Source: a virus
Taxonomy: Duplodnaviria; Caudoviricetes
Virus record (IMG/VR): IMGVR_UViG_3300024187_000002
Span: 8,322-72,321 of that record
Strand: one strand, 5' to 3'
Length of the DNA: 64,000 nucleotides
In this document: positions 4,275 to 59,900 of the stretch, in pieces
Layout: every line of letters begins with the position of its first letter
Position numbering within the stretch: position 1 is the stretch's first letter
Position numbers and translations under genes: made by a program
The notes under the pieces: generated by a model
What the model was told of the DNA's origin: nothing
What the model saw: the letters and a program-made list of their open reading frames with translations, nothing else
Databases searched by the model: none

Positions 4275-7091
4275 TTGGCTGATGTATACAACAACACGGA
4301 TGTTCAATATGACTCTTATTTAGAGCCAGAGATAGATCCGTTTGTCCAGCAGATTCTTGCCACGACTGCAATCACGAACCTCAACGGGATTACCGGCCCG
4401 ATGATTACTTTAGCAGGCGGAACGTCCGGATTTTCATATGCACCTTCAGGCTCGACGATTACTTTGGTTGGGCCACTCACAACTAAAGGTGATATTTATA
4501 CCTACGGAACTGCTGGCACACGATTTGGAGTTGGCACTGACGGACAAGTATTAACGGCTGATTCTGCTTCTTCACAAGGGCTTAAGTGGGTAACGCCGGG
4601 AGCAGGAATAGGTACAGTCACATCCGTTTCGGTAGTCACTGCAAATGGCGTTAGCGGCACAGTTGCGAACCCGACTACAACTCCGGCGATCACTTTAACA
4701 CTAGGCGCGATCACTCCATCCAGCGTTGCGATTGGAGGCATAGCTGCGACGTGGCCCCTTTCAGTTCGGGGAACCACATCAAACAATACCGCTGTCTTTG
4801 CCACAGATGATTTCGTCCTATCTAGTGTTGGCACGGCTCTCAATGTCGGTTTTGGAGCGTCTACAGGCAATACAAATGGTGCTATCCAAGCCGCGAGTAG
4901 TGGGGCGACCGCTAACGCTGCGCTTGTGCTCAATCCGAATGGCGGTAACGTTGGCGTTGGCGTAGTTCCAGCAACCTCAGCCATTCTAGAGTTGTCCTCG
5001 ACTATGGGCGCGTTGCTCGTGTCCCGCATGACCACAACTCAACGCGATGCGTTAACGGCTGTAAATGGAATGCTCATTTACAACTCGACGCTATCGAAGT
5101 TCCAAAGTTATGAAGCGGGGGCGTGGGTTACAGCAACCAATGCGGCGATAGTTCCAAATACCGCGCCTTCAGCCGGACAGATTCTAGTTGGCAACGCCGG
5201 AGGGACAGCCTACGCGCCTGTATCGATGAGTGGCGATGCGACGTTAGCCAGCACCGGCGCGTTGACTCTTGCTTCTGTTATCACAGCAGGTGGCCCAACC
5301 GGAGATGCTACGCATGTTCCCCAAATCACTTACGACGCTAAAGGCAGACTGACGACGGTTTCCAGTATTCTCATTACCGGCACCGCACCGGGAGGTAGTG
5401 CAGGAGGTGATCTCAGCGGTACTTATCCAAACCCAACAGTTGCGAAAATCAACGGCGCAACTCTGGGAACAACGACAGCTACCAGTGGGAACGTCCTAAT
5501 CGGATCGGGATCGCAGTGGGCAACTCAAGCTATTAGCGGTTCGGGCGCAACCATCACGTTAGGCTCCACAGGTGTGATAACTATTAGCGCCATCGCAAAT
5601 GCGAGTCTCTCAAATTCATCGATTACGATTAACGGTACGTCAGTTAGCTTGGGGGGCACTCGCACGCTGACTCTCGCATCGTCTGACTTCGTTAATCAAG
5701 GGACTACCACGACAATCCTGCATGGCAACGCGGCGGGTAATCCTTCATTCGGGCAGATCGTCAACGCAGATATTACTAATTCGACGATTGACCTGACTGC
5801 GAAAGTGACTGGAATCCTACCGTCTGCGAATGGTGGCTCGGCTAACGCTTTCTTCGCCGTGTCCGGGCCTGCCGCGTCCGTAAAGACCTTCACGTTTCCG
5901 AATGCCAGCGCCACGGTGTTAACTGACAATGCCGCGGTAACGGCGGCTCAGGGTGGCACTGGAATCGCGAGCTACGCAGTCGGCGATATTCTCTATGCCT
6001 CTGCCTCAACGACGCTAAGCAAGCTGGCTGACGTGGCAGCGGGAAGCTATCTTCGATCAGGCGGCGTAACAACTGCGCCCGTATGGAGCACGACCACGCT
6101 CCCGAATAGTGCCACAACCGGCGACATTCTCTACGCTTCAGCGTCAAACGTCTATTCAAATCTTGCTGATGTCGCAGCAGGTTCTTACTTACGATCCGGC
6201 GGAACATCGACTGCGCCTGTGTGGAGTACAACGACACTTCCTAACAGTGCGACGACTGGTGACTTGCTCTATGCCTCGGCTTCTAATGTTTACTCGAACC
6301 TTGCTGATGTTGCGGCTGGTTCTTATCTACGTTCAGGTGGTACGTCTACTGCGCCGTTATGGTCAACGTTGATCCTGCCGAACTCAGTTACGGCGGGGAG
6401 CATTGTCTACGGTAGCGCCACTAACACCTACGGACAGGACAACGCGAATTTGTTTTGGGACGGAACCAATCACCGTCTTGGTATTGGTTCGACCGCGCCC
6501 ACTTCTAGACTTCACGTAGACGCGGCGGGCGGCACTACTGCCGATGAGATTGCGACCTATTTCCAGAGCGGCACGTTTGCGAATATCCGCGGCTCGATCT
6601 TGCACGGCGGTAACGCGGGCGGCTATTTATCGGTTGGCGGGTTGCAGATCATGGCGCAGGGGGCAGCCAACAGCGTGAGCGGATCGGGTGATATTAACTT
6701 CCTTACGCCCGTTTCAAACTCTGCTAATAACAGCACCGACGCTACGCTTACTCTGCAAATGAAGATAAGCAACGTCGGTGTCGTAAAGATTGGCGGCACG
6801 GCTAGTCGGGGCACGACTGAAGGCACGAATCAGTTGGCGATTTTCAATGGCACAGCACCGGCTGGAACATTGACTAACGGAGCATCGTTTTTCTGCGCGG
6901 GTGGGGAAATGAAGGTGATCGATTCAGGGGGGACGATTACTCAAATTTCGCCCCATGACTCTGACGGGTATTGGGTATTTGATTCCACAAACTCGGTTAA
7001 GCATACCCGTCTCTTAATTGACGTAGAGAAACTACTGCGAGCAATGAACGATTATTTAGGCACTGATTTTGTTCACGATCTTGCTGCGTGA
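4275..7091 (+). CDS. Tail fibre protein
   Basis: 938 aa, Gly/Ser/Thr/Ala-rich, with fibre motifs (LTTKGDIYTY, GQVLTADS, GDILYASA repeats); TTG start. Confidence 0.85.
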   Translation: MADVYNNTDVQYDSYLEPEIDPFVQQILATTAITNLNGITGPMITLAGGTSGFSYAPSGSTITLVGPLTTKGDIYTYGTAGTRFGVGTDGQVLTADSASSQGLKWVTPGAGIGTVTSVSVVTANGVSGTVANPTTTPAITLTLGAITPSSVAIGGIAATWPLSVRGTTSNNTAVFATDDFVLSSVGTALNVGFGASTGNTNGAIQAASSGATANAALVLNPNGGNVGVGVVPATSAILELSSTMGALLVSRMTTTQRDALTAVNGMLIYNSTLSKFQSYEAGAWVTATNAAIVPNTAPSAGQILVGNAGGTAYAPVSMSGDATLASTGALTLASVITAGGPTGDATHVPQITYDAKGRLTTVSSILITGTAPGGSAGGDLSGTYPNPTVAKINGATLGTTTATSGNVLIGSGSQWATQAISGSGATITLGSTGVITISAIANASLSNSSITINGTSVSLGGTRTLTLASSDFVNQGTTTTILHGNAAGNPSFGQIVNADITNSTIDLTAKVTGILPSANGGSANAFFAVSGPAASVKTFTFPNASATVLTDNAAVTAAQGGTGIASYAVGDILYASASTTLSKLADVAAGSYLRSGGVTTAPVWSTTTLPNSATTGDILYASASNVYSNLADVAAGSYLRSGGTSTAPVWSTTTLPNSATTGDLLYASASNVYSNLADVAAGSYLRSGGTSTAPLWSTLILPNSVTAGSIVYGSATNTYGQDNANLFWDGTNHRLGIGSTAPTSRLHVDAAGGTTADEIATYFQSGTFANIRGSILHGGNAGGYLSVGGLQIMAQGAANSVSGSGDINFLTPVSNSANNSTDATLTLQMKISNVGVVKIGGTASRGTTEGTNQLAIFNGTAPAGTLTNGASFFCAGGEMKVIDSGGTITQISPHDSDGYWVFDSTNSVKHTRLLIDVEKLLRAMNDYLGTDFVHDLAA
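5982..6395 (+). repeat. Three tandem 138-bp (46-aa) repeats within the tail fibre
   Basis: GD(I/L)LYASAS..S.LADVAAGSYLRSGG..TAP.WS...LPNS.T units start at 5982, 6120 and 6258 and differ mostly at synonymous positions. Confidence 0.9.
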
Positions 7092-9496: not shown

Positions 9497-9505
9497 ATTA
9501 TAACA
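9497..9505 (-). promoter_or_regulatory. Extended -10 promoter (TGTTATAAT) pointing into the HNH gene
   Basis: The reverse complement of ATTATAACA reads TGnTATAAT, 66 bp upstream of the HNH start. Confidence 0.5.
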
Positions 9506-10098
9506 TGCACGACGCAATACAAAGAGCATTCAGCGAGAGTAACCGAGTGGCACTGTTGTGCTCGTTTGGGAAAGATAGCCTTGTGCTGCTGAGAACAGTT
9601 TTAGACATGGGGCACAAACCCACAATTATTTGGTTTCGCGATCATCTAAACCCTTTTGCCGCGAAGATTATTCGCGAATGGGACTTGGAAGTGGTTGGCT
9701 ATGCTCCGAGTGCAAGGTATCAAGTTGAGAATACTTTGGTTTCTGAATATGCAATCGGAAACGCAAGACTACCTTTACTTCAGGACATTTCCGAACAAGG
9801 TCAACCCGTAAATAAAGTAACCACTCCACGATTTGATTACGGGTGGGACACTACCTTATTTGGCTACCGCAAGTCGGATAGTCACCCATTAGTTCCCGTC
9901 ACCTTTGAGCCGGAGTTTCAGCTAGGACCCACCAAGATGATCGCGCCGCTTTACGATCTTTCAGACAGGGAAATTTTCAGACTCACAAACGAGATGGGAA
10001 TACCCCGCGAAACAATTTGTGATGACGTATTACCGAGTGAGTTTCCGGTAATATCTACTCAGTTCTTTCAAGAACGATTTGGTTTTCAGGTTCATTAA
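9505..10098 (+). CDS. PAPS-reductase-family (PP-loop) protein
   Basis: VALLCSFGKDSLVLL (SGGKDS variant), FGYRKSDS and APLYDLSDREIF motifs; no CC...CxxC Fe-S motif. Confidence 0.75.
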   Translation: MHDAIQRAFSESNRVALLCSFGKDSLVLLRTVLDMGHKPTIIWFRDHLNPFAAKIIREWDLEVVGYAPSARYQVENTLVSEYAIGNARLPLLQDISEQGQPVNKVTTPRFDYGWDTTLFGYRKSDSHPLVPVTFEPEFQLGPTKMIAPLYDLSDREIFRLTNEMGIPRETICDDVLPSEFPVISTQFFQERFGFQVH

Positions 10099-12758: not shown

Positions 12759-15206
12759 ATGATCGTATCTCTTTCATCGTTCCAGATTTACCCTGCCGCC
12801 AATGCCGGGTACGATCCTGATAATCTTGAGGTGCGTTGGTGGTATAATCGAGGCTACATTGATAGCAGCACAGTCTTTGTTCAGGGCGGAAATGGTCAAT
12901 CAGGATTCTACATAACGTCGCCTTGTACTGTAGACGGTGACGGAATAATTTCTGTTCCATCCACCGATCTGTTTTCGACTTTAGACGCAGCCGATCCCAA
13001 CCCTCAAAGCATTCAAATCTTTGGGCGGCTCTACAGCAACAACACTGCCAAGCAATATGTTACTGCCTATTCTTCGACGCCTACGGGTTGGGTGGTACAA
13101 AACTCTAGTCCGCTTACCTATGAAGATTTAGTCTTAGAGAATCAGTCGATCGTCCTCGCGAATCCATCGCCAACTTTCCCGACGTTCGCGCAGATGATTG
13201 CCTACATCAACTCGCTCACGCCAACGCCTTTAGCTAGCGATGTGGTTATAGGGCGCTCCCGTTTCCGCACCGCGCCCACTGACGCTCTCGACCCTATAGC
13301 GGTAGAAGATAACGATCCTCGCGTTAACGCAGTTTACAATATTAAGACCTATGGAGCAGTGGGTGACGGCAACTCGTCGCTTTCATCTGCGCCGTGGCGT
13401 GCTCAATTCGGTATTCCATCGTCTGTGCCTAATGCTTACCTAGGTGGAACTACTTTCGGGACACTGACCTTTGTGGACGGAGTTGACACCAAAGATTACG
13501 TCGCAATGGCCTATGCGGTTTACTTATCAGGGCAGAATCGGGGAACGTATGTTCCCGGTTCAGGGGTGACGTTAGTTGAGTCCATTGAGATCATCATTCC
13601 TCCCGGTACTTATAATCTTAACAAACTGATTGGCTTGTACTCGTCTTACTACGTGACAGCTACCAATGCAGTGTTAGTGAGAAGCGGCGCAGGGCCGATC
13701 TTCAACATTCTTGATCCCATCAAGACCGTCATCTCTGGTATCCAGTTTCAGGGCGGCACAAATGCGATTTTAGTCGCAAACGAAAATATCGACGCGACTG
13801 AATTGGATGTTACTCGTAACACTTTCCAAGGTCAGACTGATTATGCAGTTCGCGGCAGCAGCACGGCGACGGCAATGCCCAAGGCCCTGCGTGTTGTTGA
13901 CAACAAGTTCATTAATACAGCAGGGGGCGTCTACAACACCAGCAACCAAGCAATTATTGAGAGCAACTGGTTTGAAATGACCACCACAAATCCGCTGCTT
14001 TATAACGATGGTGGTCAGGCGTCTTTTTCTAAAAACCGGATTACCGCCGGAGCAGCCTCCCCACCTGCCGACTGGATTATCAACGCCGGACAGTTAAGGG
14101 CCGAGTGGAACATTATCGGCGGGGAAAGTCCTGCGGGTAAGAGATTCCTGCGTGTAATTGCAGGTGCGCAATACACTTCAGTCCAGCATAATATCGTCCA
14201 CTCAGATACTGACTCTTACAACATTCAATTAGACGTATATCCGATCAATGTGTTCATTGAGCATAACTGGTTTCAGTCAAACAATGGATTTATCGTTAAC
14301 GATAATTACGTTGGGGCCACCGCGGGGGCGACAGCGAGCATAGGCGCGGCACTTGGCACAAGTAACAACACCTTTAAGCATAACCAGCAGGGTAATTCTG
14401 CCACGCCGGTACTACCCTTTATCGCCTTCAAAAACGGCGGGCTATATTTCACCTTTGCGGGCACTGGTCTAGGCCGTACTGCAACCACGAGAGAAGTAGA
14501 GGTCGTTTGGCCGGGAACTGATTTTACCAACTTATTTCCTGATGCCTCTGAGGGGATTTCCGGGAGTTGGACGGCCAGCGGAGTGTCCTTCAGCAATAAC
14601 GCGGTAGTTGCCCCAGACGGCTCTACAACCGGCAGTAACATCGCTGGCAACGCGTTTGGCACACTGGATAGCACGAACATTACTACAGTCGCTTTAGGGG
14701 GCGCAGGGGCTTACACCTTGTCTCTGTATGTGCGGAACTATGCCGCGGCGAATATTGTTTCGGTTTATAACGTAACTGATTCTGTAGTCGTAGTTGCTCG
14801 CCCGCTTTCGGTAGGTACGGAGTGGATTCGGGAAATCATCTCGTTCTATGCGGCCACGGGAAAGACTTATATTGTTCGATTCAACCTTGTCACAGGTGGA
14901 TCGTTGAATGCGTGGGGATTTCAAATTAACCCCGGCTACCATGCGGCACCGTATTTGTATCGCGGAACGAGCGCTAAGAGCAGTGCGTTTCCTTTTGTAG
15001 GGCCAGAGCGTCCTGTTTATTATTCTGCGGCAATGCCCTCAACAGGTGACTGGAAAGCTGGTATGACCGTGTTCGCAACTGCACCAACCGAGCAGGGAAC
15101 GGCATTGAGTAAATACATTCTTCTAGGCTGGCGCAGAATAACTACCGGGTCAGGAAATGTTTTGAATACTGACTGGTTAGAGATGCGAACATTGACAGGG
15201 AACTAG
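12759..15206 (+). CDS. Tailspike / depolymerase (pectate-lyase-like beta-helix plus CBM-like domain)
   Basis: NIKTYGAVGDG and IIIPPGTYNL (Pectate_lyase_3 signature), Asn-rich beta-helix, NLFPDASE...WT...APDGSTT CBM-like module, tailspike-type C-terminal PSTGDWKAG. Confidence 0.85.
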   Translation: MIVSLSSFQIYPAANAGYDPDNLEVRWWYNRGYIDSSTVFVQGGNGQSGFYITSPCTVDGDGIISVPSTDLFSTLDAADPNPQSIQIFGRLYSNNTAKQYVTAYSSTPTGWVVQNSSPLTYEDLVLENQSIVLANPSPTFPTFAQMIAYINSLTPTPLASDVVIGRSRFRTAPTDALDPIAVEDNDPRVNAVYNIKTYGAVGDGNSSLSSAPWRAQFGIPSSVPNAYLGGTTFGTLTFVDGVDTKDYVAMAYAVYLSGQNRGTYVPGSGVTLVESIEIIIPPGTYNLNKLIGLYSSYYVTATNAVLVRSGAGPIFNILDPIKTVISGIQFQGGTNAILVANENIDATELDVTRNTFQGQTDYAVRGSSTATAMPKALRVVDNKFINTAGGVYNTSNQAIIESNWFEMTTTNPLLYNDGGQASFSKNRITAGAASPPADWIINAGQLRAEWNIIGGESPAGKRFLRVIAGAQYTSVQHNIVHSDTDSYNIQLDVYPINVFIEHNWFQSNNGFIVNDNYVGATAGATASIGAALGTSNNTFKHNQQGNSATPVLPFIAFKNGGLYFTFAGTGLGRTATTREVEVVWPGTDFTNLFPDASEGISGSWTASGVSFSNNAVVAPDGSTTGSNIAGNAFGTLDSTNITTVALGGAGAYTLSLYVRNYAAANIVSVYNVTDSVVVVARPLSVGTEWIREIISFYAATGKTYIVRFNLVTGGSLNAWGFQINPGYHAAPYLYRGTSAKSSAFPFVGPERPVYYSAAMPSTGDWKAGMTVFATAPTEQGTALSKYILLGWRRITTGSGNVLNTDWLEMRTLTGN

Positions 15207-15207
15207 C

Positions 15208-15711
15208 GTGAACGAAGATAAAAGCCACGCACAGGAAGCCGCCGATCTTCTCGGCGCAACCGAATCAGACCGACTGGCAGAGACGGCCAGCCTGCTGTTG
15301 TCTTACAGTTTTCTGTTTAATAATTGGAGTGAAGGCCCCGATGCAAACCTGAAGGTAGACGGCGAAACGGGGCGCATCGTTGCGGTAAATAAGCAAGCTG
15401 CTCCGATGTTTGGCTGTCACGCCACGAAGATGATTGGCACCTTGGTTGAGGACTGGATACCGGAACGACTAAGAGAACAACATAAGAAACATCGCGAAAG
15501 GTATCGCGCATTCCCAACCAACCGCCCTATGTCATACGGCCAGCAGTTAGTCGCGTTACGCGCCGATGGTAAAACTGAGTTCCCTTGTTTTATCAACCTG
15601 ATCTTTCAGTATGACGCTGAGAGACTAGTTGTTGGGGTTACTATACGACGGCTTGATCCGGCTGGCGTGAAAATGCCTCCAATGCAAACAGGGGGCGAGA
15701 CGGTAGAGTGA
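15208..15711 (+). CDS. Stand-alone PAS-domain protein (FixL-like subfamily)
   Basis: PDANLKVD..GRIVAVN.QAAPMFG....MIG..VEDWIPERLREQH..HR.RY...P..RPM..G..L.ALRADG..FP matches the PAS consensus, including the FixL proximal-His position; no output domain. Confidence 0.88.
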   Translation: MNEDKSHAQEAADLLGATESDRLAETASLLLSYSFLFNNWSEGPDANLKVDGETGRIVAVNKQAAPMFGCHATKMIGTLVEDWIPERLREQHKKHRERYRAFPTNRPMSYGQQLVALRADGKTEFPCFINLIFQYDAERLVVGVTIRRLDPAGVKMPPMQTGGETVE

Positions 15712-16166
15712 AAGAGTTGCTTCCCTATGTTGGGTTATTGGCGCTGGCGCTGTCGATAGCTAACACCGTTTATCAGCGGCGCAAAGACGTGCAAGGTGAT
15801 TGGCAAAAAAAGATCGATAAGGCAGTTGAGCCGTTTGCGGGACTACCCCAGATGGTGACAGAGATCGCGGCAGATTTAGCGGTCGCCAAGAAACAGTTGG
15901 AAGTGTTTTGGAGGGGCGTGAGTTTTTCATCGGCACAGGCTTTACATTCGCCACACACTAAAGAACTGGACGTGTTACTGGAAAAGTTCCAACGTGATGA
16001 GATTCAAAGTGAAAAGGACTTGTTCAAGCTTAAGGAAATGCTAAAAGATGTTGCGGAGAATGACCCTGAGCCTATGCGGAAGAAATTCGCACTGGATATT
16101 CTCACGCTGATTCATGTTCGATTTGAAATAGGGGGCGACTTGGTAGAATCGTTTCGACAAACATGA
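15708..16166 (+). CDS. Membrane-anchored coiled-coil protein (lysis-region type)
   Basis: N-terminal hydrophobic helix LLPYVGLLALALSIA; GTGA overlap with the PAS gene. Confidence 0.55.
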   Translation: MKELLPYVGLLALALSIANTVYQRRKDVQGDWQKKIDKAVEPFAGLPQMVTEIAADLAVAKKQLEVFWRGVSFSSAQALHSPHTKELDVLLEKFQRDEIQSEKDLFKLKEMLKDVAENDPEPMRKKFALDILTLIHVRFEIGGDLVESFRQT

Positions 16167-16239
16167 AGCAACTGAAAGAGAATCAAATCAGTAAAGGTTC
16201 GTCGCCTATGCAACCGCACCCGATGATAATGGTTACGAC

Positions 16240-16671
16240 ATGAGCGCCAATGCACCCGTTAAGTCCATACGCGAAGTCTCCCAGAATGGCTATAAACCGA
16301 TTGGTACTATGCCAAAATCGCAGCAAGAGCCATTTGTGGAACGTATCAGGCGCATCCTGCCCCACCGAGAGGACATTCAGATGAGCGATGGCCGACAGAT
16401 TAAGGGTGGTATTGTGATTCATCCGATTATCGCCACGGCGTTGTTGGGCGCAGTCATTGCTATCGGCCTCAGCGTTCGGTCGGAAATGAGTTGGCAACAC
16501 GATCAAATCGTGAAGATAACCACCCAAAAAGAAGACGCGGAAAAGCGCGACGCAGAGCGAGCCGAAGAATTAAGCAAACGACTTCAGAATATTGACGCGG
16601 TACAGATCGCCTTGGGGCGTGATATAGTTCGCGCTCAAGAAATACAGAAGGCTAAGAATTCCAGAAACTAG
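16240..16671 (+). CDS. Single-TM coiled-coil protein (holin/antiholin-like)
   Basis: TM IIATALLGAVIAIGLSV followed by a charged coiled coil; the start may be the later ATG (MPKSQQ). Confidence 0.5.
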   Translation: MSANAPVKSIREVSQNGYKPIGTMPKSQQEPFVERIRRILPHREDIQMSDGRQIKGGIVIHPIIATALLGAVIAIGLSVRSEMSWQHDQIVKITTQKEDAEKRDAERAEELSKRLQNIDAVQIALGRDIVRAQEIQKAKNSRN

Positions 16672-16681
16672 GAGAAACCCG

Positions 16682-16999
16682 ATGAGCAACGGAGACCCCG
16701 ATCCGATTTCAGGTGCGCCTTACATTATCATATGCGGGGGCCGTACCGGAGTCGCGCTCGCAACTACTTACGATGAAAAGGTTATTGCGGCAACTCAGTG
16801 CTCGGCACAGTTCGCTGCGTTCATGGGAATGGAGTACGGCGACTCTGACGACTTCATTTCAGACCTGCGACCTATTACAACCATTCAGCATCAGTTAATG
16901 AACCACGCTATCGGCGTCCATAAACTCAGCCACGATGAATTGGATCAGAAGTTTGCGGATCTATTCGCGGCAATGGCGACGATGGAGGGCGAGTATTGA
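16682..16999 (+). CDS. Hypothetical protein
   Basis: GGAG SD, 105 aa. Confidence 0.6.
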   Translation: MSNGDPDPISGAPYIIICGGRTGVALATTYDEKVIAATQCSAQFAAFMGMEYGDSDDFISDLRPITTIQHQLMNHAIGVHKLSHDELDQKFADLFAAMATMEGEY

Positions 17000-17293
17000 A
17001 CGGAGTTGTCATTGCTCGCTCTAAAGTCCATCCGCGTTCAAGCCTAGATGCGAGACTTTGCTTCTTACCGCCTAATTCACGCGACCAATCGCTGATAACC
17101 TGAGTGCGCCCTTTCCACGTAATCCAACGATTATTGCGCCTGTTGCGTTGCTGCTCGTGGTTGGTAGCCCAGCGGCAATTCGACGGTTCATAGTTTCCGT
17201 TGTTATTCTCTCTGTCGAGAGAGTGTTTAGGACTTGGCTTTGATCCCATATCGACCAAGAAGTTTTCGGCAAGCTTCCACCGTCAGACTTCAC
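16996..17293 (-). pseudogene. Degenerate HNH homing endonuclease remnant
   Basis: RWKLAENFLVDMGSKPSPKHSLDRENNNGNYEPSNCRWATNHEQQRNRRNN...SRLERGW is typical of AP2/HNH-type phage endonucleases; there is a TGA immediately upstream of RW and the N-terminal half is missing. Confidence 0.75.
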
Positions 17294-17489: not shown

Positions 17490-17512
17490 GGCTTCGGCCC
17501 TATGTTGCTGCG

Positions 17513-17539
17513 GGACGGGTCGAAAGGCCCGTCCTTTTT
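17513..17539 (+). terminator. Intrinsic terminator
   Basis: GGACGGGTC-GAAA-GGCCCGTCC followed by TTTTT. Confidence 0.85.
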
Positions 17540-17772: not shown

Positions 17773-18174
17773 TTTAGGTGATTAGCGTGTTACCCCTAGC
17801 GCAACCTCTAGTCTTACTTGTAAGACATTTTCTTAACCTAACAAAGCAATCCGTAACCGTTAAGGTCATCGACAGCCCAGAAGCGCGAATTCAAAGAACT
17901 ATGTGCTCGAACGCGGCTTAATTATGATGCTGATTTACCGTGAAGAGTCACACGGTGTCACTTGGCAACACTATCACAGTGGAGCACTACCAGATGCTGA
18001 GAACTATACGCCTAGTTTTCACTTGTTGCAAGCACTTTGTTGTGCTATCTTCTGATTGTCCATTCGTACGGAGTCAGACATCCAAGATGCACTTGCGCCT
18101 CGACTCAAAAGGTTGGGGCGTTGGTGTCTTTACGCCACAAAGAGCGTAGACAACTCTAACAGTTCAGGACTACA

Positions 18175-18486
18175 ATGCCTCTTGAGATTATGGCGACTCT
18201 GCTGATTACCGTCTTAGCTCTGGTCGCTGCAAACTCAGTTCTACTTTGGCAACTCAGGAAGGACATCAAGAAAATGGCTGGAACAATTCTCGATCTGCAA
18301 AACGAAGTTACCGCACTAACGACCGTTGAAGAGAGCGCGGCTAAACTTTTAGACGGCCTCTCTCAACAACTGAAAGACGCGCTCGCGCAGAACGATCCCA
18401 CCGCAATTCAGAAAGTCATTGACGATTTGGATGCAGGGAAAGCAAACTTGGCGGCGGCGATTACAAGGAACACGCCAGCAGCGTAA
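18175..18486 (+). CDS. Membrane-anchored helical protein (spanin/lysis-accessory-like)
   Basis: N-terminal TM, coiled coil, C-terminal LAAAITRNTPAA of a kind common in phage lysis regions. Confidence 0.5.
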   Translation: MPLEIMATLLITVLALVAANSVLLWQLRKDIKKMAGTILDLQNEVTALTTVEESAAKLLDGLSQQLKDALAQNDPTAIQKVIDDLDAGKANLAAAITRNTPAA

Positions 18487-18500
18487 CCAAAGGAGTTCAC

Positions 18501-18725
18501 ATGCTTCTCTTACTCACAGGCGGCTTAAGCCTTAGCGCGTTGCCGTTGCTTTTGGTCTACCTGTTAATCATCCTGATCGTCGTGTCAGTGATCTATTGGT
18601 TGATTAACTCGTTCGCGCCAGAGCCGATCAAGCGTTATGCGATTGCTGTAGTGGTCGTAATCGCGGTGATTTGCTTAATCTATTTTCTACTTCAATTAGT
18701 TGGCGGCGCGTCGCCGCTTCGCTAA
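18501..18725 (+). CDS. Small 2-TM membrane protein, holin-like
   Basis: Two long hydrophobic helices joined by APEPIKR; GGAG SD. Confidence 0.6.
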   Translation: MLLLLTGGLSLSALPLLLVYLLIILIVVSVIYWLINSFAPEPIKRYAIAVVVVIAVICLIYFLLQLVGGASPLR

Positions 18726-18739
18726 AAGGAAATCAAAAC

Positions 18740-18922
18740 ATGAAAATCAAATGGTTTCGTAGTGTTCGATTTAAGAATGACTGGGAATTGAACTTCATTG
18801 GCAGAGTGTGGAACTTTAGAATCGGGCGTAGTCAATTCGCCTCGTGGCGCAACTACGAGCCGATCTTCAACCTCTTCCGCGACCATGGAAATGGCACTTG
18901 GAGTTTGCCGTTCAGCGCTTAA
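18740..18922 (+). CDS. Hypothetical protein
   Basis: AAGGA SD, ATG at 18740, Trp/Phe/Arg-rich 60 aa. Confidence 0.45.
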   Translation: MKIKWFRSVRFKNDWELNFIGRVWNFRIGRSQFASWRNYEPIFNLFRDHGNGTWSLPFSA

Positions 18923-19073
18923 ATACAAATCAGAAAGGTTTGCGGCGGGTCTTTCGGCCAATGTTCTTTGATGAAGAGAGCAGCTCGTTTGACAGGAAAC
19001 AACGACCACGTTCAAGTAGCTACGCGCTTTGCGCAACCGGCACTGACTCGCCTTCGTCTCTAGGGGATAATTT

Positions 19074-19565
19074 ATGCACAGACGTTCATTCATCCAAAGC
19101 ACCACCACCGGAGCAGCCAGCATGGTTGCGCTTGGCATGTCCAAGTGCAGCAGTCCAAGTGTCAAGGGGTCAGTTACGATCATCACTGGCGCGGTCAGTG
19201 AGCTTCAGATTCTTTTCCCTAACAACTCTGCGCTTGGCAAGATTGGAAGTCTCGCTAATGACTTCTCAAAAGACTGGTCGGCAGGCAATTTCGCTTCAGC
19301 CCGAACCGCGTTCGACAACCTCGACACTTTAATCAATCAAGTCATCACAGATTTGGGACTGAATGCGTCAACGAGAATCAAGCTAATTCTCGCGGCTTTA
19401 GGAATTGGTCTGAGAGTGCTTGCGGCGATTATCGCAGAACAGGGAAGCCAGAATACTTCTGCTTCAAGGGCTGCGAGAGTATCAGCACCATCGACAGTAA
19501 ACCGGATAAATCAACTTGCTGATCCGGTTGTGGCGGATAGGTTGCTTAAGAGTTTGAAGCCGTAG
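19074..19565 (+). CDS. Twin-arginine-signal protein, probable lipoprotein
   Basis: MHRRSFIQ Tat-like motif, h-region ending SKC-SS, amphipathic helices. Confidence 0.55.
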   Translation: MHRRSFIQSTTTGAASMVALGMSKCSSPSVKGSVTIITGAVSELQILFPNNSALGKIGSLANDFSKDWSAGNFASARTAFDNLDTLINQVITDLGLNASTRIKLILAALGIGLRVLAAIIAEQGSQNTSASRAARVSAPSTVNRINQLADPVVADRLLKSLKP

Positions 19566-43602: not shown

Positions 43603-43946
43603 GCAATCCGTTCAACGTCAAAAGAGCGCGGAAGAGTTTGGGTATAAATGATATTCAGGAGTCCGCGCTTTTTACTGACTTTTGTAACCGCTTCAAGCCT
43701 TTCGGGACACGCCGCGAGGCGGACTTTAAGAATTCATTGCGCCAACTCTGCTTAGAGATATTCAGCCTCGGCTACGAAGAGGGCGTGGCAAGTAAAGCGG
43801 AGATTGGAGCACGCAGGCTTGGGAGCCGCGGAGGATTGAAAGGTGGCCCTGCGAGAGCTAGAACACTTTCACCTGAGCGTAGAAAGCGAATAGCCCAAGA
43901 TGCAGCCAATCGAAGATGGCACCCAAAGGAGGATCAACTCAAATGA
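43599..43946 (+). CDS. Protein with C-terminal basic GGxxGG.ARA..L..ERR..IA..AA..RW motif
   Basis: GSRGGLKGGPARARTLSPERRKRIAQDAANRRW. Confidence 0.65.
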   Translation: MSNPFNVKRARKSLGINDIQESALFTDFCNRFKPFGTRREADFKNSLRQLCLEIFSLGYEEGVASKAEIGARRLGSRGGLKGGPARARTLSPERRKRIAQDAANRRWHPKEDQLK

Positions 43947-44530
43947 CAGACAATGAATCACCCGCAGTGCCAGAGCGCCGGATTACCGCAGAGCGGCTAG
44001 TCGATCAACTGCGATTCTTCTTGCCAATCACCGAGGCCAACGTAGATGGTCTGCGGGAACTATTCAATACCGCAATCGTCAACGCGAATGCTGATGGCCG
44101 TGATAACCGCCGCGTCCGCTCCGCTCCTGATACTCGTGAAAGAATCGGACAAGCAATAGACAAGGTGAGATTGTCAGGTGATTCCAAGACTGGTGCGATG
44201 ACGTTAATGCGTGAGGAATTGATAGATGCGCTGGTCGCGTCCGCTCCTGATACCGCAGAAGTAGCGAAGATTGAAGCGCGATGTTTAGCTGACCATCCGC
44301 ACGTCGGGCGCTCTCCTGGCATTTTTGGCGGCAGGTGGATCGTGGGTGGAATTCGCATCGCTGTTACCGACATCCTCTGCTACTTATGGCAAGGGCACGA
44401 TGTCGCGTACATCGCTAACGTTTATGGATTATCTGAAGTGCAAATCAAGGATGCCATCGCTTTCGCGCAAGACTTCATTGAACAAAGCGATAATCGAGGA
44501 GCCGAACTCGTCAGCGATAAGGAGAAATGA
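43943..44530 (+). CDS. DUF433-domain fusion protein
   Basis: HVGRSPGIFGGRWIVGGIRIAVTDIL...GHDVAYIANVYGLSEVQIKDAIAF. Confidence 0.8.
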   Translation: MTDNESPAVPERRITAERLVDQLRFFLPITEANVDGLRELFNTAIVNANADGRDNRRVRSAPDTRERIGQAIDKVRLSGDSKTGAMTLMREELIDALVASAPDTAEVAKIEARCLADHPHVGRSPGIFGGRWIVGGIRIAVTDILCYLWQGHDVAYIANVYGLSEVQIKDAIAFAQDFIEQSDNRGAELVSDKEK

Positions 44531-53984: not shown

Positions 53985-56900
53985 ATGCCTGACGATCCTA
54001 ACGACATTCTGTCTGGTGGTTTGGTTCCTCGTACTCCGCGTTCAATAGACCCGTCAGAACGTGTTAGACAAATTGCGTCACGCGCCCAAATCTCGCCTGA
54101 CGTTGCGGATGACTACCTGAAAACAACTCAAGTTGAATCGGGCCATAACGTAAACGTTCGTGATAGCTCCAAGGGGGCGCAGGGCTTTGGGCAGGTGATG
54201 CCGGATCGTCCGGGCGGCACGATTCGCACTGTGGGTGGCAGGCAGTACAATCTCCGAAATCCCGATGAAAACATCGAGGCGGGCTTACGGTATTTCAACG
54301 AAGGCGGCCCCGATCCGGTTAGTCGAAGGCTCTATTATTTCGGCGGCCCAAAAGCTAAACGCCACTATGAGAGCACGGGACAGATACCAAATATTTCAGA
54401 CGGAAATATGTCCGCCGCGCAATACGTAAAAGCTACTGGCGGCAGTGTACCGAATAGACCTATTCGCGCCCAAGAGCCATCAATTCTCAGTGGGGGATTA
54501 GTCAGTAAAAGCCCTGCGTCTAAAACTGAGACGCCTGACATTCTCTCAGGTGGATTAGTTGAGGCAAGTCCGTCCAGCCCGGCAAGTCCTGACAATTCAG
54601 GACAAGTCCCGGCAAGTCCACCTCTGACTACTAATGATGCTGCATGGCACTTTGGCACGACGCCGGACGAAGCGAGACGATTAACGCCCAAGGCCCAACA
54701 GATATTAAGTGAAGCAGTCGCGGAAGATCAGCGCAAGAAAGCAGCAGGCCAACAAGTTCAGCAACCGTCTCTGAAGTATCAGAACGATATGCGTAAGGCG
54801 GCAGGGCTAAGACCGTTAAAGTACAACATTGTCACTGATGAGACCAAGACTGCGCCTTACTACCAACCAACCACAGTTCCCTTCATGCTGAAAGAGAAGG
54901 CCCCGATTCAGGTCAAGCCGCGCCCGTTTACTTTCCAATCGCCAAGCGATGAGCAAATAAAAGAGTCGATTAGACGAGAGGTATTAGCATCAGCGAGACA
55001 AGATACACATCTGCATCCTGAGGCGGGTAACGATATCAACCAGACTGACATTGAAAACATCGTCAACCAACGATTCGCGGATTACAAGGCGAACCAAGCG
55101 AGCGAAACGACTGCGGCGCAGCTTGGGCCAAGTATGCAAGCGCGTCAACGAGGCATCGGAGAGCGCGTCAGCGAGAAATTAGGTGATGTCGCTACAAGTC
55201 TGAATATCGACACTCCGATGGGACTGAAGACGGACGTGTTAAGAGGCGCAGCCAAAGGTCTATTATTGCCTGTCCCGTCACGCACGATTTCACCAGAGGA
55301 GAAGTTAGTCGATCCAAGTGCTGAGGCGTGGCAGAAGTCGTTCCTTGGGCCTGAATCAGTCGGAGAGTTGGCGACCGCGTTCATTCCTTACGTTGGTGCA
55401 GGGAAGCTTGTTTCTAAGCTGGGCGTAGCGAGTCCTGTATTGAGAGACGCACTAACGTTCGGAGTTGTGGATGCGGCGAAACAATTCTCGCAGACGGGAA
55501 AGATTGACCCGCAATCCGTAGCCGAATCGCTATTGATGGGTGGCGCGATGGGGAAGATTGCGGGACTTGATCCAAGTCTAAAGCGTAGAATAGTTGCGTA
55601 TCTTGCCCCTCAAGTAGCCGTAGGATTGGCAAAGGGTCAACCCGCGTCGCAGATAGCTCAGGGTGCTGTTACTAATTTAGGATTTGCGTTAGCAGGTGGA
55701 ACGAAGGGCGAGCCATCAGATTTAAGAGTTACACCAAAAGGAGAGATCAATGCAGGGAGTAGCGTACCAAGTGGACGACAGCAACCAATTTCAAGTGCTG
55801 AACCGAGGCAGATACCCAGAACTCAAGAGCGAGATGTTGCCAGTGAAATATCAAGTCCGTTGGTGGCAACTGCCGAAAGCCTTAATCCTGATGTGGCAGG
55901 GTCGAGTCGAATACAAGAACGGGCATTGGCAGAGCGTCTTGCGTCTCAGCAGAAAGGACTTGGAGCGAGCGAAGCAACAACTCGCCAAGGTGTAGATTAT
56001 GCGAACCAAATTGAAGCGCAGCCGAATGTCACGGCGCAACCTGAGAGCGCGGAGTCAGTCGAGCAAGTTAAGCGGTCGCGTCAAGTGGTTTCGGAGCCTG
56101 TGGGAGCGCCTGCCCGCGTGTCAGAATCCTCAACCTTATCACCCGACGTGGGAACAATGGGCGACGAAGGTAGCCAAGCTATAAGACACGTAGACCTTCA
56201 ACCCCGCAGAGTTCGCGGCGAAGGCAAGGGCCAATTCAAAGCCGAAACTCGCGCACAGAGAGAAGGAAGACTCGCACAAGTAAACTCTCCCGCTACGCCT
56301 TCCGAGGGTGATACTGAAGGAAAGTTCTACGAGCAGTTCCGCGCAACCGATCAAAAAGATTACAACCAAAAAGTTAACGCTCTGGAAGCTTACCTGAGTC
56401 TGGACAAAGAGCGCGCCCAAATCAGCGATAAGTTGGCTGGCTACGAATCCGACCATCCTCAGTACAAGCTGCTTGATAAAAAGCTAGACGAAATAGATCG
56501 CAACTTGAATCTGGAGGTCGATCAGGCAACGAAGCGCCTTGGCGTTAGTGCTCAAGATTTCATCAGCCTGGTAAACGAGTTTGAGAGCAATAAGGCTGCC
56601 GTTACTGCTGCGCTACGTCCGCAGGGTGGCGTATCTGTACCTGAAGGGAAGCGTCCTGTCTCTCGGCAAGAAGCAACGGACTTAGGCTACACCCAGCGCG
56701 ATCCATCTGACGTACGCACTTTCAAAGCGCAATCCATTTCAGATGAATCGCTGAAGTCACATCTCAGAAAGAACGGGTTCAAAGCTGACGATACGATTAT
56801 TACACCAAAAGGTGAAGCCGAAATTTATCAAGCATCTTCGGGGTTGGCTTATTCATGGAAACCCAAAACTGGAAAGGGCCGTGACGGGCGGATATTCATT

Positions 56901-59900
56901 GACGATTCCGAATTCACGCGACATCCGACCACGTGGCGCGATCCCCAGAACCCTGCGTTGACGATTCAAGTCTCCCCTCAACCAGAGACTAAAGCACCCG
57001 GATTCTCTGATAAGACAGTGCAGATGGTTAGAGGCGAATATGCTCCCACACCAGAACTACAAGCAGTCATCGACAGAATCAAGACAACGCACTCTCGCGC
57101 TGATCTGGATACTCTGGAAACTGAACTACACCGCATAAAGGACGACGCTCTTACCCGCCTGCGTTCGGGTGAGCCGGATGCGCTTGAGCGCGTCACTCAG
57201 GTTAATAGCCTAATCAATGCCCTCTTAAACCAATTCTCCGTTGTTCAATCGGGCGAGCTAAAGGAACTGGCAAGGGGTCTCGTTCAGGATAGTCAGAAGT
57301 GGTCGGACGTAGTGCGTCAAGCTCGACGTGCAGCGTCGGGAGATTTCCGCGAACCCAAGAATGTCACGTTATCCAGCGACCAGCCTAAACCTGTTGGGCT
57401 GCTTGAGGCCGCACCGGAGAAAGCACCCGCGGCGACTATGTCTGAAGCCGCGAGTGTTCCAAGTAGCCCTGAATCTCAAGGTTCGTCTGCGCGTTCCGCG
57501 CGAGGTGCAACCCCCGCGACCGAACAAGCATTGCAGGATTGGCGCGAAGGTCGCGCTTACATTGACGGGCGCGGCAACTATCACGTAAAAGCGGAAGGCA
57601 AGCCAAGCGGCCCGATCGCGCCGTGGAATAAAGAAGCCAAGTCTACATTTGCGAATGTCTCAGAGTTGCACCGTGCTGCGAATCTGGAATCTCGAGGCGA
57701 AGAACCGTGGCAGATGACGAAGGTGGAATATGCCCGTAAGTGGCATGACGCGGCTGATACGGCACCGCCCAAAGCCGACGAAGTGCTGACGGGCGCGCAG
57801 CAACGCGATGCCCGCCTTGTTCGTGAGGGGCACTTATACGCCGTGCGCCGCGCCGTCGAACAAGGTAAACCCGTTCCACCTGAAGTTTTAGCCGACTACC
57901 CCGATCTCTCCCCTCAACCAGAGACTAAAGCATCCGCTCCCCCACAGAGCATTAAAGAACAAATCTCATATCAAGCAAAGCGTCAACAAGTGATAGACGC
58001 ATTAGCGCGAGATGAATTTCCCTACAAAGGATGGGATACGGAGTTCCCTGACTTGGCCGCTGAACGCAAAGCATCTGTATCTACTCCGGAGACTAAAGTA
58101 GAACCAGCCGCACCAACAGAAAGGATTCAACCAAGTGAAAATGCTACGCCTGCCGTCGCCGTGGATAACTCGCAGCGATCAGCACTTCAGACGAATCAGC
58201 CAGAAAGAGTTGCGCCAACTACTCAAGACGTACGAAGTACTGAAACAAGCGAACGCCCGCCGTCTAATGCCACTATCGCACGGCCTGAACTAGAACCGTC
58301 AACAACGTCTGCGCGCAAGTCTCAACTGGCTGAAGATCGCGCGCAGCTAGACTTGCCAGAGTTGCCGTCGGCAGAGCGTAAGAGTTGGCGGACCTCCCTT
58401 GCCAATGCCAAGCCGGAACGCGCCGCTTTGTTAGCCGATGAAGTGCTAACCAAGCCTCGTTCGTTGAATGACGAAGAAACGGCTTCTTTGGTGGTTCGTG
58501 CTCAGGAAATTAAGAACGAACACGCTCAGACAATGAAAGAGATCGGAGAATCGTCCGATCCTGACACCATTGCGGCGAAGAAAGCCCAAGCCGATGCGCT
58601 AGAACGGGAATTTGACAAGATTACGCGAGCAACTAAGGCGTCAGGAACGGAAAAAGGCCGCACTCTGGCTGCCCAGAAGCTCACCATCAATCAAGACTAT
58701 GATTTAGTTTCGCTAGTTCAACGCGCCAAGGCTGCTAAGGGGCGCGATTTGAACCCTGCGGAACGTGAACGTTATGAGCAAATGGCAAGTCAGATAGAGG
58801 ATTTGAATAAACAACTCTCAGAAGCAAACGAGAAAGCCCAAAAAGCGCAATTACAGCGGTCTATTGACAAGGTTAAAAGACAAACTCGCCGGGCCGAGAC
58901 CAAGGCGACTTTAGACACTGAATTTGCATCGCTGAAGTCTCAATTAGCACAAGCCAAGCTCGAAACTAGATCGGGCGTTCAGCCCTCACTGCTTGCCAGT
59001 CTTGACCCTGAAGGCAAATTAACCCCGATTATTGCTCGCATGGCAAAGAACCGCGTGAGAGCCGGGATAAATTCCGCTGAAGGGCTAGTCGATGAAGTTT
59101 TTAACGCGGTTAAAGACCATTACGACGTTTCGAGAGATGATATAGCAACACTGATTCGCGGCACGCTTCATCAGCCTGACGATGTGTTGAGCAGGTGGGA
59201 CAAGCGCAGACAGTCTCAGTTGTTGAAACAACAGGGTGAGATTGAGAGTCGATTAGCCACAAGTAACTTTAGCCCCAAGCCCTCGCGAGAAGCACCGATT
59301 TACAATCGAGAGACGTTCAAACTTCAAAGGCAAGTCAACGAACTCAAGGCCAAATATGATCGTGAAATGTATCGCGCCACTCGTGGCGTGACAGGGAAAC
59401 TAATCGACACAGCGGCAGGGTTTGGAAACATTCCCAAGACGATGTTGTCTATGGCAGATGTTTCTGCCGTCTTGCGTCAAGGTGGAATAGGCGTCTATCA
59501 GCACCCGATCCTTTCTGGTAAGGCCGGAGTAGACATGCTGAAGTCTTTCACTTCGCACGGATTTGCGAATGTAGAGAATGCGATTAAAAACAGTCCGCGA
59601 TTTGACCAAGCTAAGAGATCGGGCGTGGAGTTTACCGGGGTCGATAAGGACAATCCACAACTCTCAAAACACGAAGAAGGGTATCTAGGGTCAGGCGCGA
59701 TTGACACACTGTCTCAGGGCAGACTAAACCCCTTGCGCGTAGTTAGGGGCGTGAAAGATTTCTCTGAACGGACTTTCGTTTCGTTTCTAGATTCACAGCG
59801 CATGAGAATCTTTGAGCAGCAGGCCAAGGCCCTCGAAGATATGGGATTAAAAGGGAAGGATTTAGACGCCGCGCTCAGGTCGCAAGCGAAGTATATAAAC

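Follow-up and report, generated by a model that had tools for sequence, protein, structure and literature searches.

Sensors of the heme-PAS type have been described in kinases, phosphodiesterases, and transcription factors of bacteria. The present analysis is devoted to a stand-alone heme-type PAS protein of 167 amino acids (aa) and its membrane-anchored partner, which are encoded by adjoining genes of an uncultured tailed phage (Caudoviricetes; IMG/VR record IMGVR_UViG_3300024187_000002). The source record is a 72,321 bp virus, and the analysed stretch of 64,000 nucleotides (nt), designated below as the window, covers its bases 8322–72321. The gene pair is considered as a phage sensor module composed of a heme-type PAS domain and a membrane partner, expressed late and with control of lysis timing as the likeliest output, and this reading as a whole is given about an even chance of being right. 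In the literature search no phage heme-PAS, no PAS-linked lysis regulator, and no output-less viral heme-PAS with a dedicated membrane partner were found.

Among the described systems the best profile match (1e-13) and one of the top fold matches of the phage protein is FG214. This one-component HTH-PAS (helix-turn-helix-PAS) regulator of Fimbriimonas ginsengisoli (PDB 10jx/10jy) undergoes a monomer-dimer switch on DNA; its H156 was established by mutagenesis and crystal structure as the proximal heme ligand, with H175 as the distal ligand and M172 as a possible alternative distal one (bioRxiv 10.64898/2026.03.15.711900). Both proteins share the pattern P-E-R-[FL]-R-x-x-H-x-x-H-R-x-x-Y-x-x-x-P-x-x-R-x-M; however, FG214 possesses a fused HTH output and the distal His175, while the phage PAS is output-less, has Gly111 at this position, and is coupled to a separate membrane protein. 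The FixL heme domains (PDB 1dp6, 1d06, and 8js5) resemble the phage protein in the PAS fold, the proximal His on the F-alpha helix, the R-Y spacing, and the length of the FG loop, with a template modelling score (TM) of 0.85 on BjFixLH, but the phage PAS has no histidine kinase, Gln replaces Arg220, and R89/R96/M108 stand where FixL has A/L/I. The third relative is EcDOS/DosP (PDB 1s66, 1v9y, and 9cdr), which shares the heme-PAS fold (root-mean-square deviation of 1.9 Å over 109 columns) and the His/Met ligand pair proposed here, but is a weak sequence match (E = 0.02) and carries fused GGDEF/EAL outputs in DosP. In ferrous EcDOS/DosP the heme is ligated by His on the proximal and by Met on the distal side.

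Two further groups are comparable by architecture or by the proposed role. The output-less PAS photosensors, namely, photoactive yellow protein and the short LOV proteins PpSB1-LOV and RsLOV, signal via protein-protein contacts. They likewise consist of a single PAS core with a flanking N-cap or C-terminal helices and act through partners, but they are bacterial, bind p-coumarate or FMN, and have no obligatory overlapping partner gene. Phage regulators of lysis timing include the T4 holin T with the antiholins RI and RIII, the latter acting from the cytoplasmic side, and P1 LydA/LydB. These are late small membrane or cytoplasmic proteins that tune the moment of lysis to a signal; in contrast to them, the phage module is linked to lysis by gene neighbourhood in relatives only, and no sequence or fold similarity was detected. 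No antiholin with a PAS or heme domain is known.

The module consists of the following elements:

15208–15711, + strand: stand-alone heme-type PAS sensor, 167 aa, GTG start (TIGR00229, PDB profile, AF2, Foldseek)
15708–16166, + strand: membrane-anchored helical partner, 152 aa, one predicted transmembrane segment at residues 4–22, the rest helical
15708–15711, + strand: GTGA stop/start overlap of the PAS and partner genes, NTGA in 11/11 loci

The open reading frame (ORF) 15208–15711 encodes a real, output-less PAS protein. It begins after a 1-nt gap behind the end of an 815-aa spike/fibre gene (15206) and comprises an N-terminal helix with an N-cap (residues ~1–42), the PAS core (43–150), and a short tail (151–167); throughout the 167 aa neither a transmembrane segment nor a second domain was found. 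The protein passes the NCBIfam model TIGR00229 “sensory_box” with 32.0 bits against a cut-off of 22.9, and the Pfam models PAS_4, PAS_8, PAS_9, PAS, and PF24820 all match it just below their cut-offs. The original prediction, made from the nucleotide letters of the window, had described a 167-aa PAS ORF at these coordinates with 1-bp spacing from the upstream gene and a GTGA overlap with the downstream one, all of which proved accurate. Its characterization of the product as a stand-alone FixL-like PAS with a preserved heme-ligand His and without an output domain also holds, TIGR00229 being passed and His92 being aligned with FixL. The second NCBIfam match is the rhizobial FixL model NF041777 (19 bits, cut-off 850), restricted to the heme-PAS segment of the profile (positions 133–216). 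A FixL sensor kinase was therefore rejected as the identity of the protein, given the 19 versus 850 bits, the length of 167 aa, and the absence of HisKA/HATPase domains.

When the family profile was compared with PDB, FG214 (10jx) was reached at E = 1e-13, the FixL heme domains at 1.8e-6 to 4e-4, and EcDOS at 0.02–0.04. The solved structures found at E ≤ 0.05 were exclusively heme-PAS, and no non-heme protein appeared below E = 0.4. The PAS fold was defined as a five-stranded antiparallel sheet with flanking helices in the order beta-beta-alpha-alpha-alpha-alpha-beta-beta-beta, and the AF2 model has this canonical topology behind a long N-terminal helix, with strands at 46–51, 56–60, 108–117, 124–136, and 139–148 and helices within 64–100. 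The blocks of the core have predicted local distance difference test (pLDDT) values of 72–84. In Foldseek comparison the model matched many PAS structures with a probability of 1.00; FixL, 10jx, and EcDOS/DosP ranked first, TM reaching 0.85 on BjFixLH.

The residues of the presumed heme pocket were compared by profile alignment. R-E-Q-H92 and the subsequent R98-Y99 occupy the same columns as R-S-R-H200...R206-Y207 of BjFixL and as the corresponding residues of the second FixL sequence aligned, and the FG loop is aligned to FixL without gaps. Relative to FG214, His92 corresponds to His156, Met108 to Met172, and Gly111 to His175, where the numbering of the preprint equals the 10jx chain numbering + 69, an offset derived from the same alignment. 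Both His92 and Met108 are invariant in 16/16 phage homologues that span 38–91% identity, while the column of FixL Arg220 is Arg in 4/16 of them. Only Met (the M172 equivalent) is kept among the distal-side residues of FG214. From its position Met108 of the phage PAS could serve as the sixth heme ligand, as in ferrous EcDOS.

The place of the phage protein among cellular PAS domains was evaluated by exhaustive profile search, which yielded 53,967 proteins at E ≤ 1e-3, chiefly multi-PAS kinases. In the representative-library search the scores are summed over PAS repeats and multi-PAS kinases dominate, so the results serve for residue statistics only and not for the ranking of relatives; these statistics are based on 853 PAS domains from the best 149 proteins. 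The 853 domains are bimodal for the set R89/R96/P103/R106/M108: 273 carry at least four of these residues and 514 carry at most one. The phage PAS and FG214 each possess 5/5, while FixL belongs to the other class; at the column of Met108 the cellular domains are split between I and M, and Met is invariant in the phage family. The phage PAS thus most likely falls, judging by these residues, into the sub-class of FG214, its one member with experimentally shown heme binding via this His. Such membership raises the odds of heme binding without proving it, and binding of heme by the phage PAS is considered probable. As a separate observation, the pair C70-H71 (window positions 15415–15420) is a phage-specific feature without explanation: His71 is invariant in 16/16 phage PAS sequences and Cys70 is present in 14/14 of the window's clade, while the corresponding columns of the 853 cellular relatives contain Y and T/S/A.

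The word-index search revealed 14 clusters of PAS homologues (149–207 aa), every one stand-alone, and two further homologues with ~40% identity were found through the contexts of partner genes, resulting in a 16-sequence alignment. Despite divergence to 38% identity, 33 columns of this alignment are invariant. The most conserved segment is the N-cap (residues 21–42; mean column identity 0.85 versus 0.77 for the core), which includes the invariant motif L-S-Y-S-F-L (residues 31–36) outside the PAS core. Comparison of the window gene with that of locus L004 (related phage loci are designated below by such numbers) gave a proportion of nonsynonymous differences (pN) of 0.09 against a synonymous one (pS) of 0.76, which is saturated; synonymous sites are saturated in the remaining pairs too, with pN of 0.09–0.45. 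The PAS gene evolves under strong purifying selection and does not represent a fragment recently taken from a host, and the reservation of the original prediction, that the gene might be missing in relatives or evolve under relaxed selection, is settled by the relatives found and by these values. Among longer proteins the closest cellular relative in the word-index search is P0087, a 640-aa hybrid kinase with 45% identity over 53% of the query. The IMG/VR scan with the PAS alignment gave no additional locus, and no match to the PAS protein, the partner, or a high-GC partner homologue was obtained by tblastn in 50,697 GenBank phage records. BFVD contains a few stand-alone “PAS domain” proteins of uncultured Caudovirales, so PAS-only phage proteins are precedented.

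The coupling of the PAS gene to the partner gene was analysed in all readable contexts of partner homologues at ≥50% identity. The PAS gene stands directly upstream of the partner family in 11/11 loci with DNA (the window, L002–L006, and L008–L012) and also in three further contigs, for which the gene context but no DNA was listed. All 11 loci retain the NTGA junction, its first nucleotide being G in 4, T in 2, and C in 5, and the conserved partner N-terminus K-[ED]-L-L-P-Y is read from the overlap codon. The CTG starts (CTGA) occur in L005, L009, L010, L011, and L012 at ~4989–5004 and are preceded by a GGAGAG Shine-Dalgarno-like motif 9–12 nt upstream. Because in these CTG loci every canonical start lies behind the codons of K-[ED]-L-L-P-Y (in L012 one is first reached 52 codons further on), the arrangement indicates that the translational coupling is obligatory. 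Two PAS clades, ~40% identical, share one common partner family, and the window partner shares 74–78% identity with partners from the other PAS clade versus only 52–67% with those of its own; such discordance implies that the genes have recombined while remaining adjacent. The original prediction had coupled the PAS gene to two downstream membrane genes. This is borne out for 15708–16166 by the 11/11 loci but not for the next gene, 16240–16671, which has no homologue in 9/10 loci, and the conserved unit is composed of two genes, not three.

The partner is a new, well-conserved phage protein family without known fold relative. It consists of the transmembrane segment (residues 4–22), a basic juxtamembrane Q-R-R-K, a long helix, and a C-terminal bundle of ~100 residues; the AF2 model (pLDDT 73.5) is all-helical, with the transmembrane helix running into the long helix and then into the bundle. 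Conservation is highest in segment 61–98 (V-F-W...A-L-H-S-P-H-T...L-L-E-K-F; 0.85) and weak in the transmembrane segment (0.55). At 90% identity the family comprises 72 clusters versus 14 for the window's PAS type. The 13 residues that follow the transmembrane segment carry a net charge of +3 versus ~+1 for those preceding it; at least 90% of the sequences retain R24. According to the positive-inside rule the bundle probably faces the cytoplasm, where the signal-less PAS could reach it, and this predicted orientation is opposite to the N-in/C-out topology of i-spanins, whose coiled-coil domain is periplasmic.

Searches for structural relatives of the partner were negative in several formats: the best Foldseek match in PDB had E = 0.7, the best VIA-align wide Z was 7.5 (within helical-bundle noise), and the scores of the ESM Atlas feature search were ≤0.83, which is below the useful range. 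In PADLOC-DB the PAS protein had no match and the partner had just a 14-bit match of coiled-coil type (E = 0.006). The GTDB genome scan with the partner alignment gave one 2.3-kb contig of a metagenome-assembled genome labelled Mycobacterium, which is uninformative on the host. Distant partner homologues without PAS were also detected in high-GC actinophage-like contigs (L015 2873–3655, L016 4782–5309, and L007 38–496), where they are located downstream of a LysM and transglycosylase gene and upstream of another small transmembrane protein. The 270-aa gene beside the high-GC homologue has only “hypothetical” or “cysteine protease” annotations and is uninformative; the lysis-cassette reading of L015/L016 is thus based on the LysM-transglycosylase gene alone.

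The proposed mechanism combines these features. The PAS protein and the partner would be produced together late in infection, the partner being translated by ribosomes finishing the PAS gene at the NTGA junction. The cytoplasmic PAS would hold a b-type heme via His92, with Met108 available as the sixth ligand, and would act as a gas (O2/NO/CO) or redox sensor in which Met108 leaves the heme, or the FG loop is reshaped in some other way, once a gas ligand binds or the redox state changes. It may further be speculated that the distal heme ligand missing from the phage PAS (where Gly111 replaces His175 of FG214) comes from the invariant H-S-P-H of the partner. The partner would be anchored in the inner membrane by its N-terminal helix, with a cytoplasmic four-helix bundle to which the PAS could bind, probably via the conserved N-cap motif, relaying the heme state to the membrane. 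The partner would thereby influence some membrane event of late infection; the most plausible candidate is the triggering of holin, a process that responds to membrane energisation. The most extended form of this proposal, in which many uncultured phages carry a membrane-tethered heme gas/redox sensor gating lysis or another late membrane event by the oxygen or respiratory state of the host (an “oxygen-gated lysis clock”), is regarded as rather unlikely.

Evidence for lysis comes from the surroundings of the module in relatives. In L003 the genes of a GH19 endolysin and of an Rz-like spanin lie 1.5–2.3 kb upstream, in L005 a holin (phrog_9752, 6e-10) is encoded 1.5 kb upstream, and in a 66.7-kb contig a Phage_holin_10 gene is located 1.2 kb downstream, so that lysis genes lie within ~1–2.5 kb of the module in three different backbones. 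The stretch after tail fibres hosts both lysis cassettes and accessory genes, and these neighbourhoods are therefore treated as suggestive only. The original prediction had designated the locus as a lysis region, a label that was not confirmed: the window genome yields no recognisable lysis gene, and there is no cassette with an endolysin at the locus. The whole-genome searches for PF00959, PF00182, and PF01510 gave nothing, and PF01464 (SLT) was found only in a 2349-aa virion protein; none of 30 other ORFs carried a lysin domain. For the candidate lysis proteins (147 aa in L010, 146 aa in L005, and 163 aa in the window) no PDB sequence match was obtained, and the L005 holin is not similar to the 74-aa two-transmembrane protein of the window. 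Holins are diverse and are often missed by profiles.

Several observations weigh against a heme-dependent lysis regulator, and they also define its rivals. With respect to heme, its binding by the phage PAS is deduced solely from homology, and the quality of the AF2 model is just moderate (pLDDT 64.6, 14-sequence alignment). The O2-binding Arg220 of FixL corresponds to Gln112 and the distal His175 of FG214 to Gly111; neither is kept, so the ligand chemistry is not simply transferable from either protein. In addition, His at the column of His92 was found in 811 of the 853 cellular domains (95%), many of which form tandem arrays with as many as 13 domains in one protein, and heme binding by all these domains has no support, in agreement with the earlier caveat that this His occurs beyond proven heme binders. 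The wide occurrence of this His and the loss of both distal residues, together with the generic and sub-threshold Pfam PAS matches, favour an alternative in which the pair acts at the membrane but the PAS is heme-free, serving as a ligand-free adaptor/dimerisation module or as a binder of another small molecule, with His as a structural hallmark of the sub-family. Nevertheless, the structures reached at E ≤ 0.05 are heme proteins without exception, the complete R/R/P/R/M set near the ligands is common to FG214 and the phage protein, and Met108 is invariant in phages at a column that is I/M in cellular domains; the heme-free variant is accordingly judged quite unlikely. The resemblance of the core to the repeats of multi-PAS kinases (the 53,967 matches mentioned above) could also be explained by the recent capture of a host sensor kinase fragment without function, but this is hardly credible in view of the 33 invariant columns retained at divergence to 38% within phages, the saturated synonymous sites with pN of 0.09–0.45, the phage-specific N-cap motif, the obligatory partner gene in 11/11 loci, and the absence of any long protein above 45% identity in the word-index search.

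With respect to lysis, the partner could not be assigned to any known family, holins and antiholins included (PHROG, Pfam, NCBIfam, and fold searches), and Pfam and PHROG gave no holin, endolysin, or spanin family match among ~40 window ORFs. No lysis gene was found near the module in L002, L004, or a 75.6-kb contig. The position is itself weak evidence, the stretch after tail fibres being also a common site of accessory genes. Furthermore, distant PAS-less partner homologues (32–36% identity, L-H-S-P-H kept) in L014 (4962–5462) and L017 (5053–5565) stand directly after an SU10-type portal gene, in the head-gene module of podovirus-like contigs, which is a poor fit to a lysis role. The rival suggested by such data is an accessory (moron-type) module unrelated to lysis, which would act in superinfection exclusion, in interference with host PAS kinases or c-di-GMP as a tethered decoy, or in virion assembly at the membrane. 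It would explain why the pair is found in unrelated backbones at borders between gene modules (behind tail fibres, ahead of packaging genes in L003, and beside divergent early genes in L004), why the PAS and partner phylogenies are discordant, indicating recombination, why PAS-less partner homologues occur inside head-gene modules, and why no lysis gene is located nearby in the window genome. However, there is no PADLOC match; the PAS gene has no promoter of its own and follows the spike gene by 1 nt, which points to late rather than prophage or early expression; and holin or endolysin genes lie within 1–2.5 kb in three backbones. P0087, the closest long cellular relative in the word-index search, would be poor for a specific decoy with its 45% identity over half of the protein, and the suggestion of a decoy for host PAS kinases, made in the original prediction, found no support. 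Such an accessory role is considered unlikely, and lysis as the output of the PAS-partner module is retained as a tentative and doubtful possibility.

Should the phage PAS bind heme and the pair influence lysis or some other process at the membrane, the oxygen or respiratory state of the host would be read directly by phages. Present explanations of lysis timing invoke chiefly holin concentration and membrane energisation, and a physiological input would then be added to them. In such a case the module would also provide a compact two-protein gas/redox switch for engineering.

The PAS locus represents the 3' end of a long plus-strand string of virion genes, and its neighbours in this string are as follows:

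12759–15206, + strand: spike/fibre-type protein, 815 aa, NCBIfam NF048003 GTA_spike_fiber at residues 590–739
16240–16671, + strand: bitopic membrane protein, 143 aa, transmembrane segment 57–75, basic N-terminus, coiled-coil C-terminus
16682–16999, + strand: acidic soluble protein, 105 aa, last of the gene string, 64% identity to L002 7419–7724
17512–17535, + strand: intrinsic-terminator-like hairpin, 10-bp stem with 7 GC pairs, GAAA loop, T-run

The 815-aa protein matches GTA_spike_fiber (“phage head spike fiber”) with 45.8 bits versus a cut-off of 36, and its weak homologue in L002 occupies the equivalent position, while no Pfam, PHROG, or PDB sequence match was found. The name “tailspike”, given to this gene in the original prediction, is therefore fair when relaxed to “spike/fibre protein”. 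The GTA_spike_fiber domain may hint at an alphaproteobacterial host. The 143-aa protein, separated from the partner ORF by a 73-nt gap, has no PHROG, Pfam, NCBIfam, or PADLOC family match and no homologue in L003–L012; in L002 a similarity of 25% identity over 89 aa (E = 8e-4) was detected. It is a co-transcribed neighbour, not a member of the conserved module. The 105-aa protein is common only to the window and L002 and has no family match; the 3' end of its ORF is overlapped by 74 nt by an HNH endonuclease gene on the minus strand (phrog_3377, 5.5e-32; 16926–17258). The plus strand between 12000 and 17511 contains weak consensus terminator matches alone (3 G-C pairs), and the hairpin 17512–17535 is probably the end of the late transcript carrying the PAS module. 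Since only 1 nt separates it from the spike gene and no strong terminator occurs before 17512, the PAS gene is most simply read as a late gene co-transcribed with virion genes.

Genes for small proteins of membrane or secreted type form a cluster (18175–19565) 2 kb downstream, behind a promoter-like site at 18147–18176:

18175–18486, + strand: transmembrane and coiled-coil protein, 103 aa, 41–52% identity to homologues in four loci
18501–18725: two-transmembrane protein, 74 aa, weak Thivi_2564-family match
19074–19565: 163-aa protein with twin-arginine-like N-terminus R-R-S-F-I-Q

The homologues of 18175–18486 (L005 4286–4540, L009 4295–4537, L011 4318–4554, and L012 3861–4082) precede the PAS gene of other phages by 0.5–1.4 kb, mostly directly, which is a loose association. 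In L005, L009, and L011 the homologues of 18175–18486 and 19074–19565 adjoin the PAS gene or the tail fibre, and it is possible that the cluster is an unrecognised lysis cassette. Two more families (~145–205 aa and ~133–156 aa, without family match) follow the partner in 7–8 loci (L003, L005, and L008–L012) and are absent from the window genome.

The ends of the source record share a 127-bp terminal repeat, and its completeness was estimated as 100% (CheckV). The 10 kb around the locus gave no GenBank phage match in Megablast, and PHROG matches are sparse among the window genes. The main landmarks outside the locus are the following:

47918 and 50909: small and large terminase
53985–61034: virion protein, 2349 aa, with SLT domain at 54126–54302 (28 bits, above the cut-off)

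The SLT-bearing protein is probably an ejected virion protein rather than an endolysin; its counterpart in L004 has 1741 aa and also contains SLT. The other recognisable genes of the window encode tail-fibre-like proteins, a GT4 glycosyltransferase, a hexapeptide acyltransferase, and HNH endonucleases. In addition, a DUF433 domain protein (38 bits) is encoded at 43916–44530, and a PAPS-reductase-like (PP-loop) protein (phrog_424, 2e-7) at 9505–10098.

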